Shown here: in pieces, positions 2,214 through 5,200 of the stretch
Layout of the letters: each line of letters starts with the position of its first letter
Numbering within the stretch: the first letter of the stretch is position 1
Assembly: GCA_965116885.1 (NCBI GenBank)
Contig: OZ220741.1
Span: forward strand, 4,864,001-4,928,000
From: Candidatus Latescibacterota bacterium
Lineage (GTDB): Bacteria > Latescibacterota > UBA2968
Direction: 5' to 3'
DNA: 64,000 bases
Made by a program: the position numbers and the translations under genes
Notes under the pieces: generated by a model
Databases searched by the model: none
What the model was told of the DNA's origin: nothing
What the model saw: the letters and a program-made list of their open reading frames with translations, nothing else

Positions 2214-5200
2214 TTAATCGTCTATCGGCAACCCCACAAATAATCGACTGTATTCATCTGTCAATGGATCGCGCTCGCCCTTTTGCGCTGCGCGGGCAAA
2301 TACCACACCCGGCTTTTCCGACCTGCGCGCCCGCGCCAAAACGCCATATCCACCTGGCGCACTCTGCGTTTCCAGATCGCTCTGAATCGCCAGCATCTCC
2401 GCCAGCGCATTGGCCAAACCCCAGCGCGCACCAATCGCCCGCGCAAAAAGCTCCTCTGGCGTCAGCCCCTCTCGAAAACCGTGCTTCAAGGGCGTAAATC
2501 CACCCTGGTCATTCCGCGTCACGCCCTGGGGAGCCACATAAAGTCTAACCTGCTGCCAATTGGCACGCGCACCACATGCCACCAGAAGCGCGGGAATCCC
2601 GAGATCATCGTCGTCATATTCGCGAAACTGCGCCAACACAGCCGACACCTCATCGGGATAATCGCGCCAGACATCTGGGTCATCGCCCTCTGGCGGATCG
2701 GGCCAATCGCGCGACGAACCGATAAACGCACTCATCGACGCACCTGTCTTGCGCGTAGCATCAAAACCCCGATCCCACAATCGCGCAGATAGATCCAATG
2801 CCGCCTTCGAGCCATCGCGCGCCATTGCAGCCGCCATCCAGTCCATCACCTGATACTTATCGACAAATAACCCCTTTCGCTCAACCTCATCGCCGACAAT
2901 CTCCGCAATCTCCTGCAACCCCTCGTCCGTCATACTCATATACGCCAGGCCAAACAGCGCGTCGTGCATCGGGTGTACCTTCTCCCGTGCAATCAGCCCT
3001 GGATCCCGATTTAAGTGAGCTACTGCCGACAGATGTTCTTCAGCCGACCGCTGTCCCTCTTCAGTCACCGGCACAAAAATCGCCACCTGATCGCCATCAA
3101 AATCCATATTCATCATCTTGCAAATCGCCACACTCACGCGCACAGCATCGCCTTTCACGCGTACCGGACGACACGCCACAAAAGCCATTGGCGAAAACGC
3201 GGGATTGCGAAGCACCACAGTCCATAACTCAGCCATAGCCGCATCCAGCGCTTTCTCCGCTTTTTTTGACCGCCTATCCACTTCTTCAGTCCCCACCTCT
3301 CGCGCGGCAAACGGCCCAAACAACGTCCACGCCATCTCTTCGGGCACACCGACCTGATCGTATCGCAATTCAGGTGCAGGCACAGCCACTGAACGCCCGC
3401 TGAACAACGCGCGCGCCTGAAATTGCAAACGCGACAACTCGCAAAATGCGCGAACTCGCTCAGACAGCGTCTCGACCACACGATCCACCAATATATCTGG
3501 CGCGCCATTGGCAATCATCTCACTCAAGCGGTTGTTGGCCTCTCGCAATTCTCGGGGCACATCTCTCCCACTCACATGAGTCAACGAATGCCCCGGCAAC
3601 CACGGATGCGGAACCGAACGCGCAAGCGCGACATCCCCACTGCGCTTCAACGAAAACTCGATGCCGCGTTCATCCAGTTCAACAGCCACCCCACCTTTTG
3701 ACAAATGCCCAATTAGCTCATCAAACTGAGGGGAAGGCGCATTAGGAGTAACAGGTCCCGCAACGACGCGGTCAGATAGAGTATCGGCATCATCTCGATC
3801 TACCGCGCACGTATTGAACAAATCGCCAATCACCCCAAAAGCACCCGCTTCTCGCAACGCCAAAAACTCTGTCTCGCCCAACCCCTGGCTTCGCTGATCT
3901 AATTTTACACTTCCGGGAACGGCTTGGCGAAGATCTGCGGCGGTTTGACCTAACTCTCGATCTCGTTTCCCCAGCTTCACACCAGCCTGAATTTTATCCG
4001 CCGCCAAATGCACCGTGCGTCCCCAATACACCCACCCTACAGTGGTGCGACGCGGCAGCGTATCCCCATTTAGCGTCAACGCCTCCATACCGTCTTCTGC
4101 CAGCTCTAAACCTTTCAAACGAGCGCGTATCTCATCGTCTTTTGGCGCATTGAGCGCGGGAATAATAACCGGCTCCCCCTCGGCCTTTGCAATGCGCCCG
4201 ACCACAGCTTCGCGTACCTGTCCAATATTCAACCGCGACGGCAAACCACACACACTTACAATAAGCTCCACAGGCGTGCCATCCGGCAATTTGGGCATAT
4301 CCTCATCTCGCAAAATGCGCGACACCACCCCTTTAAAACCGTGTCGATTACTCAGCTTATCACCCGGCGCAACGCGATTGGGCAACATCATCCGGTTCGC
4401 CGCGGATTCGCTGATCACAACTGCGTCTTCATGTGTATCTCCATTCCACGCCATAAACGCGGTCAGCAAATTGTACCCCGTCCAGAAATGCGGATCGCGC
4501 GGTTCACACCCCGTTTGCACCAGCGCGGGTTCCGACTCCAAGACGGGTTTGAAACCCGTCTCTACATTGCCGTCATATTGCGCGTGATACGCGTGCCACG
4601 CGCCCTGTTCATCGCGCTGCATATCGGGACTCGGCGCGCCAATCCACTGCCGCATCATATTCACGCCCATCAAAACGCGATTGGTATCATTGTGTTCCAA
4701 AAACGGAACCACCGAAGCGCCTATCCCCAACCGCTTTTCAGGTGCATCGTCTTCAATCACCAGCTTGCCATCGCGAATAGTTGCCCCCTGAGCCACCTCT
4801 AAAATCCGCGCGAGATTCGGTCCCTCGGGCGTGCAATATGGACACACGCGCCCATCGTGCGACGGATGATAGCAATTCTCTATCCCCTCATCGGCCTCAC
4901 CGATAATTGGGATCAACGTCACCCGCCGCAAATGAACGTACATATCCTGCAAATTGGTCGCCTGCAAAGACTGTGATGTGGGTTCTTCCATAAAAAATGT
5001 GTGAATCCAATCCCCCAACGGCAACCATGTTTCAACGGCATCTCCCAGCATCTCTGGCATATTTTCCAACCGCTCGGCAATATAATCGCGCAATTGCTCC
5101 CCTACACACCGAATCTCAGCCCGCGCCAAATCCACATCAGTCGGCACGGGAACCACCGTTAAAAAAAAGCCATCTACCTTAAACCGTCCCCAATCGTCGG

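Follow-up and report, generated by a model that had tools for sequence, protein, structure and literature searches.

A miniature single-chain RNA polymerase from Latescibacterota in which the bridge helix leads directly into beta' region H

The window analyzed here is a stretch of 64,000 nucleotides from the genome of a Candidatus Latescibacterota bacterium (positions 4,864,001-4,928,000 of contig OZ220741.1, assembly GCA_965116885.1). It carries a minus-strand open reading frame (ORF) of 1069 codons, whose residue numbering is used throughout, that encodes a miniature single-chain RNA polymerase descended from the bacterial beta and beta' subunits. The anatomy of this protein is settled with high confidence: it is a beta::beta' chain in which the bridge helix is wired to beta' conserved region H and from which the trigger loop, the jaw and the flap are gone. 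In all cellular RNA polymerases, catalysis, fidelity, pausing and cleavage are considered to depend centrally on the trigger loop. The mini polymerase represents a natural, widely conserved and close derivative of beta/beta' in which the bridge helix runs straight into the clamp-closing segment, and its sequence and structural model suggest that it is probably an active enzyme working without a trigger loop and with a sigma factor of its own.

Overall architecture

Pfam analysis of the mini polymerase revealed Rpb2 domain 3 (residues 151-209), Rpb2 domain 6 (PF00562, residues 351-480, 8e-39) and Rpb1 domain 2 (PF00623, residues 738-796, 2e-15), with no further Pfam match at E<=1. Among solved structures, the best match of the N-terminal half is a bacterial beta subunit (8i23_C, 3.5e-44), and residues 670-832 match a beta' subunit (5uh5_D, 1.4e-26). 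Profile comparison by hhalign gave E 1.5e-74 for RpoB; the alignment against RpoC that the original prediction had proposed as a check, performed with ten canonical sequences, gave E 7e-46 over residues 622-1012 and stops within the bridge helix. Bacterial rpoB and rpoC models score highest on the mini polymerase, and the identity of its beta half falls from 29-31% with bacterial beta to 25-27% with the archaeal and 20-23% with the Pol II counterparts. NCBIfam scores are nevertheless far below the curated cut-offs (170.1 vs 801.15 bits for rpoB TIGR02013, 113 vs 963.5 bits for rpoC TIGR02386), and the protein has about 40% of the size of E. coli beta and beta' together (1342 + 1407 residues). 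Its PHROG matches are beta- and beta'-like phage families, and PADLOC reported nothing for the mini polymerase or for the neighbouring ORFs N381 and N315.

The same 5.56-Mb chromosome holds a canonical rpoC (1740 bits, in a 1372-codon frame) at a distance of 340 kb, so the mini polymerase is an extra paralogue. The translation start of the mini polymerase is probably M11 at position 5393, which would give a protein of 1059 residues, because the proteins of relatives begin at the aligned methionine. The coordinates of the features are collected in Table 1.

Table 1. Features of the sigma-polymerase locus, in positions of the window
Feature	Position	Strand	Basis or remark
Mini RNA polymerase ORF, single-chain beta::beta'	2214..5423	-	1069 codons counted from GTG at 5423
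Beta-like half, residues 1-587	3663..5423	-	carries Rpb2_3 and Rpb2_6
Beta'-like half, residues 588-1069	2217..3662	-	profile and structural alignment
Beta-barrel motif, residues 354-365	4329..4364	-	K356, K364 = E. coli beta K1065, K1073
Helical hairpin, residues 624-660, aligned to beta' clamp coiled-coil	3444..3554	-	model and profile alignment
Catalytic motif NMDFDGD, residues 772-778	3090..3110	-	Pfam and alignment
Bridge helix, complete, 32 residues P989-Q1020	2364..2459	-	single unbroken helix in both models
Six-residue loop S1021-Y1026	2346..2363	-	between bridge helix and C-terminal block
C-terminal block G1027-D1068 = beta' conserved region H, E. coli 1318-1358	2220..2345	-	profile and structural alignment
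381-residue ORF (N381), between sigma and polymerase genes	5466..6611	-	weak tetratricopeptide repeat hints; lineage-specific, outside the conserved module
Extracytoplasmic function (ECF)-type sigma gene	6643..7236	-	PF04542 1.8e-18, PF08281 9e-15; regions 2 and 4
ECF-like promoter TGAACC-N13-CGGTGTC	7259..7284	-	upstream of sigma gene; only exact site in the 5.56-Mb genome

Bridge helix and region H

A structural model was obtained with AlphaFold2 from an alignment of 81 sequences (predicted local distance difference test, pLDDT, 93.5; predicted template modelling score, pTM, 0.92). Because the Foldseek and VIA-align matches of the full-length model were only beta-type chains over residues 1-587, the beta' half was also folded separately, with a pLDDT of 93.7. 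The junction in question lies within nucleotides 2214-2480 of the minus strand, which hold the codons for residues 982-1069 and the stop codon. The original prediction had placed about 20 residues there between the N-terminal half of a bridge helix and a block resembling the beta' C terminus, and the interval is exactly 20 residues (L1007-Y1026, following GARWGLANA, which ends at A1006). The notion that only an N-terminal half of the helix is present has to be given up, as the models contain the complete helix, of which 14 of the 20 residues are the continuation. Only the six-residue loop then separates it from the C-terminal block, and the direct junction that had been proposed is retained, with region H as the identity of the block. 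The bridge helix aligns to E. coli beta' at about 769-798 (residue 1018 pairs with beta' 798), and downstream of it the model shows short helices at residues 1028-1034, 1038-1048 and 1057-1063. Eight residues, 1019-1020 and the loop, stand in for E. coli beta' 799-1317, a segment of about 519 residues which we take to comprise the trigger loop, sequence insertion 3 (SI3) and the jaw.

The C-terminal block is the best-conserved C-terminal segment across the family of proteins of about 1000-1060 residues and is not a chance feature. When the last 57 residues were aligned alone by hhalign to four beta' segments, region H ranked at the top (score 16.1 over 41 columns, with residues 1027-1068 placed on E. 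coli 1318-1358). For the segment that reaches from the end of the bridge helix to the trigger-loop N-helix, the score was 13.8 over 25 columns, at E. coli about 835-859 and thus off the trigger helix, while SI3 scored 11.6 and the trigger loop's C-terminal part with the jaw 10.9. These segment scores are weak, which leaves the assignment undecided at the level of sequence, and it is the structural alignment that decides the identity of the modelled block as region H. In VIA-align of the beta'-half model, all 50 listed rows are bacterial beta' chains (Z 29.0-30.1), with 455-472 of 480 residues aligned, and model residues 1 to 479-480 run onto residues 22 to 1358-1363 of E. coli, 12 to 1260-1265 of mycobacterial and 10 to 1473-1478 of Thermus beta'. 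The end points of the two methods agree to the residue, the profile placing 1068 on 1358 and the structural alignment 1069 on 1359, and the earlier remark that the block resembles beta' is borne out by both. Two points count against the assignment: the sequence match to region H has E 0.016 for the segment and 0.19 for whole beta', with a probability below 3%, and the structural alignment on which it rests gives the first and last aligned residues only.

The predicted lack of a trigger-loop motif and of a jaw is confirmed. The Pfam model Rpb1_5 (PF04998) matched none of 23 family members at E<=0.1, and nothing lies between the bridge helix and region H that could be assigned to either element. 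A cryptic trigger-helix equivalent inside the ORF, the finding that the original prediction had named as its refutation, did not emerge from structural modelling; the residues of the beta' half left unaligned, at most 25, are too few for a cryptic trigger hairpin. One stretch likened by eye to the canonical AAQSIGEPGTQLTMRTFH of the A3 consensus was considered as a candidate trigger helix and was rejected, because region H scored higher (16.1 vs 13.8) and the structural alignment ends at E. coli beta' residue ~1359. The beta half has three parts that are unaligned or modelled with low confidence: the nine N-terminal residues, the loop 489-506 and an insertion at about 263-295 that many relatives do not have. 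A relative's 3.7-kb contig (X1) has the window's positions 3884-3988 of the minus strand, residues about 480-513, swapped for 31 other letters; this swap is at the site of the low-confidence loop 489-506, a loop absent from most family members.

Retained active site and lost segments

Conservation of the active site was counted over 81 family members with identities down to 35%. The metal-binding aspartates D774, D776 and D778 persist in 79, 79 and 78 members, respectively. On the beta side, the equivalents of K1065, K1073, R678 and R1106 are kept in 73, 77, 80 and 80 members and those of E813, D814 and H1237 in 72, 76 and 74, and on the beta' side 68 and 74 members have the equivalents of R425 and R731. 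The helical hairpin that corresponds to the beta' clamp coiled-coil is also retained. The beta' clamp coiled-coil is the usual docking site of sigma region 2.

Apart from the segment between the bridge helix and region H, a deletion concerns E. coli beta 849-1057, 209 residues that are skipped between residues 348 and 349 and that we take to be the flap. Beta 1-370 has no confident counterpart in sequence, yet in VIA-align model residue 8 is paired with residue 8 of beta, and the match to bacterial beta extends from close to the N terminus as far as the C terminus. Within beta', the skipped segments are E. coli ~310-340, 520-575 and 652-679. Taken together, the skipped segments also include parts of the N-terminal clamp and of the secondary-channel rim.

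Family and distribution

Of 8000 candidates scored in a word-indexed search, 576 proteins had E<=0.001. Among the 120 matches listed, nearly all have 1000-1070 residues; they lie on contigs of up to 8 Mb, and those named by their source are "hypothetical protein" entries of metagenome-assembled genomes labelled Gemmatimonadota or Latescibacteria. An exhaustive search returned 8555 representatives at E<=1e-3, 3809 at 1e-10 and 368 at 1e-30, with canonical subunits counted in. Within the phylum of the window, the mini polymerase was found in 65 of 168 genomes at E<=1e-60, including all 20 other genomes of the genus. True members were fetched from records labelled Latescibacterota, Poribacteria and Caldilineaceae. 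In a scan of genome contigs, four of the 80 kept loci were true members; the others show 22-36% identity and resemble canonical rpoB or rpoB-rpoC. One 8.4-Mb genome (G071) holds two diverged sigma-polymerase modules (L117 and L118), whose polymerases are 46% and 38% identical to that of the window.

In the plasmid collection (12 matching records) and the phage collection (three), no record covers at least 80% of the mini polymerase, and the annotated ones among these partial matches are canonical rpoB. Among BFVD structures, only separate viral polymerase subunits were found (best TMq 0.34) and no single-chain analogue. The ESM Atlas contains other fused clusters of 1330-1675 residues from unrecorded taxa, 91-97% of whose members carry Rpb1_5. 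These clusters are possible trigger-loop-bearing cousins of the mini polymerase and provide a lead; that longer fused proteins carry Rpb1_5 suggests that the deletion of the trigger loop is a derived state. No description of the mini polymerase family was found in the literature, in which coverage of subscription journals was thin, so that an earlier mention is possible, and the main text of the ECF reclassification paper has no occurrence of six RNA polymerase-subunit and phylum terms.

Sigma factor, promoter and gene neighbourhood

A sigma orthologue lies on the same strand and upstream of the polymerase gene, usually directly, in all 20 fetched loci and in the window (21/21), and these loci come from several phyla. 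The sigma factors of the other modules are 43-83% identical to that of the window, and their identity tracks that of the polymerase. Sigma is the only gene family common to more than four of the 21 loci, and no alpha or omega homologue occurs among the conserved genes of the module. Five genomes of a sister genus are without the polymerase, and the sigma factors in them come no closer than 36% identity. The sigma factor of the window has no Pfam match to region 1 or region 3. Its translation probably begins at the TTG at 7236 or at an ATG further on, since the listed GTG at 7263 falls within the promoter -10 element. The linker of the sigma factor (residues ~90-125, window ~6860-6970) shows unusually high conservation for an ECF sigma: P112 and W114 are invariant, and D117 is nearly so. 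It features a stretch of RRREQPLE type, a run of acidic residues and a PGWMID-like motif.

The motif TGAAC(C/T)-N13-CGG(T/C)GTC precedes the sigma gene in members of different phyla; it is in exact form in 19 of the 21 loci, and variants occur in L007 and L117. Each of the 21 genus genomes (21/21) has the exact pattern once, beside the module, and across the 168 genomes there are about 98 matches compared with about 23 for a reversed control. A matrix built from 15 distinct sites, the window's own site included, scored that site at 31.1 bits and the next best at 18.8 bits. Relaxed patterns yielded 10-20 scattered matches in which no pattern was seen. Extra exact sites in two genomes (L130 and L131 in G010, L132 in G009) lie antisense within a duplicated 727-residue ORF and have no Rfam match; they were set aside as probably due to chance and kept by coding conservation.

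Contigs of four metatranscriptome libraries from three studies, with coral or sponge labels, fall on the polymerase and sigma genes, and some of these pieces differ from the window at 0-3 positions. Parts of the stretch left uncovered by the contigs X2, X3 and X4 are uninformative either way. Contigs of three of the RNA-library runs (X1, X2 and X4) stop following the window at 7288-7290, immediately upstream of the promoter; strain synteny therefore seems to break at the 5' edge of the module.

The gap between the sigma and polymerase genes takes lineage-specific insertions. In the window it is occupied by N381, a weak relative of which (phmmer 8e-9) occurs in L124 downstream of the polymerase, and in L114 by a 586-residue ORF at 6032-7792 that appears ABC-transporter-like by eye. 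Directly downstream of the mini polymerase and on the same strand, window positions 3-2068 of the minus strand encode a BlaI-type repressor (PF03965, 7e-31) and a BlaR1/M56-like membrane protein with TonB-C-like repeats recognized by eye. The window neighbours N381, N315, BlaI and BlaR1 are not conserved among the other loci.

An association between the two conserved proteins was addressed by complex prediction, with polymerase residues 300-1069 and the sigma factor both given as alignments. The predicted complex had an ipSAE of 0.49 (runs 0.50, 0.41 and 0.49), the best of three controls scored 0.00, the pLDDT of the partner was 68, and the runs agree in at least 46% of contacts. In the calibration, 116 of 157 solved complexes and 2 of 215 mismatched pairs reached the mark; at <=0.60, only 18 of the 157 solved complexes did so, together with both mismatches. 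Such a pass may also mirror likeness to solved complexes of sigma with RNA polymerase.

Proposed function and alternative explanations

The original prediction had left the function open between a slow enzyme, an enzyme of different chemistry, a trigger-loop substitute in trans and a binding decoy, a four-way choice that is beyond what sequence can decide. We consider it probable that the mini polymerase is an active, trigger-loop-free RNA polymerase that works with its own sigma factor. The parts kept are both double-psi barrels with the full catalytic set, the complete bridge helix, a minimal clamp with the coiled-coil and the clamp-closing region H, whereas the trigger loop/SI3/jaw segment and the beta flap have been lost and a loop of six residues links the bridge helix to region H. 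This architecture, the conserved active site, the obligate link to a single sigma orthologue and the private promoter of that sigma are established. Nucleotide addition would proceed without a trigger loop, with the barrels and the bridge helix responsible for catalysis. As in YonO, fidelity would probably be lower and intrinsic cleavage absent. That such an enzyme must be slow is not a safe conclusion, because YonO, in which trigger-loop homology is not detectable, is reported to be as efficient as multisubunit RNA polymerase (PMC5467207). The co-encoded ECF-type sigma may form a small holoenzyme with the mini polymerase via the retained coiled-coil, and this holoenzyme would read the promoter TGAACY-N13-CGGTGTC.

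A more far-reaching version holds that the locus is a second, orthogonal transcription system, composed of a half-size core without trigger loop, jaw and flap, its own ECF-type sigma and a promoter present once per genome, with a self-amplifying loop and, as possible output, cargo genes within or after the operon. We regard this version as tentative and give it somewhat less than an even chance.

Several observations weigh against an active polymerase working with its own sigma. Conservation is poor along the C-terminal half of the bridge helix, the beta' N458 equivalent varies (N in 46, D in 22 and E in 6 of the 81 members), and contigs from RNA libraries are not proof of transcription. Other observations speak at the same time for a different arrangement, in which the sigma factor serves the host RNA polymerase only and switches the operon on, while the mini polymerase is catalytically active but sigma-free, on other templates (for example single-stranded DNA, RNA and nicked DNA) or as an enzyme that makes primers or is linked to repair. 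The spacing of the promoter is that of an ordinary ECF promoter, which the host core enzyme could read; the flap, the usual dock of sigma region 4, is missing; a single promoter copy per genome leaves no output gene evident, and neither the exact pattern nor the matrix scan made a further regulon member evident in the window's own genome; and the complex prediction, at an ipSAE of 0.49, lends weak support to a sigma-polymerase pair. Other single-chain two-barrel enzymes also act without sigma, according to reports on them (PMC5467207; 10.1101/2020.03.07.982082). This arrangement is at odds with the strict co-occurrence of the sigma gene in 21/21 loci and the presence of a close sigma in 0/5 of the polymerase-less genomes, and with the retention of the clamp coiled-coil although most of the clamp is lost, and we consider it unlikely.

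Less likely again is a non-catalytic mimic of the core enzyme that occupies the position of an anti-sigma gene and sequesters sigma via the coiled-coil. Anti-sigma genes usually sit directly downstream of ECF sigma genes, which is where the mini polymerase gene lies relative to an autoregulated ECF sigma, and the loss of the trigger loop, flap and jaw and the lack of any other regulon member found would fit such a role. The catalytic residues argue against it, as the aspartate triad and the beta-side lysines, arginines, glutamate and aspartate are kept in 72-80 of the 81 members down to 35% identity, and about 1000 residues of polymerase fold are conserved with high model confidence; the binding decoy of the original prediction is thus disfavoured. 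A trigger-loop substitute in trans, for example the sigma linker with P112, W114 and D117 or an unlinked protein, is the least probable explanation, since the conservation across phyla of the linker's acidic stretch and PGWMID-like motif is set against a genome search in which the only Rpb1_5 match at E<=10 is canonical rpoC and no stand-alone fragment was found, the lack of a third conserved gene in the module, and a complex run that reported no interface.

If the reading of an active polymerase with its own sigma is true, it would be of interest to evolutionary biology, for the limits to which a cellular polymerase can be reduced, and to synthetic biology. The mini polymerase would offer a clean test of what two barrels and a bridge helix can do alone, and it would show how sigma operates without a flap. 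If the sigma factor pairs with it, the two genes would constitute a compact orthogonal transcription unit of about 3.8 kb where they adjoin.

Comparison with known systems

The canonical core enzyme with an ECF sigma, as in the M. tuberculosis sigma-H complexes 5zx3 and 6kop, is among the top structural matches and has the catalytic motifs, the bridge helix, the coiled-coil and region H in common with the mini polymerase, which differs in being one chain and in the loss of the trigger loop, SI3, jaw and flap. Full-length beta::beta' fusions (NF007172 and NF011417, about 2850-2900 positions) share the order of beta before beta'. Those fusions are complete subunits joined end to end, whereas the mini polymerase has about one third of their length and scores 166.1 and 170.5 bits, against cut-offs of 5372 and 4632 bits, respectively.

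Single-chain two-barrel polymerases are already known, namely YonO, Orf6, QDE-1, gp66, gp64 and gp96. Orf6 of the yeast killer plasmid pGKl2 is described as an Rpb2::Rpb1 fusion of 982 residues from which about half of the coding sequence has been deleted (PMC2919709). As in the mini polymerase, the homologue of the second-largest subunit precedes that of the largest in one chain of about 1000 residues. By its description, Orf6 is encoded by a linear plasmid of the eukaryotic cytoplasm, is considered to stem from yeast subunits and is without a sigma factor, while the mini polymerase gene lies on a 5.56-Mb bacterial chromosome. QDE-1, the crAss-like phage gp66 and the P23-45 proteins gp64 and gp96 combine two barrels in a single chain and have a bridge helix as well as a C-terminal region contributing to the clamp (10.1101/2022.12.01.518664), and for gp66 a trigger loop is reported (10.1101/2020.03.07.982082). 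Compared with these enzymes, the mini family has just six residues from the bridge helix to the clamp-closing segment and lacks even the N-terminal part of a trigger loop; it is also far closer to cellular beta/beta', chromosomal and coupled to sigma.

YonO from the Bacillus subtilis prophage SPbeta, a homologue of multisubunit RNA polymerases, resembles the mini polymerase in being a single chain of about 100 kDa that contains two barrels, and trigger-loop homology is not detectable in either. YonO is further described as more error-prone and without cleavage activity and, according to its authors, shares just a few catalytic residues with multisubunit RNA polymerases (PMC5467207). By comparison with that description, the mini family is 26-31% identical to bacterial beta/beta' over about 1000 structurally aligned residues, and whereas YonO is encoded by a prophage, the mini family is chromosomal and linked to sigma, with no full-length phage or plasmid match in the collections searched.

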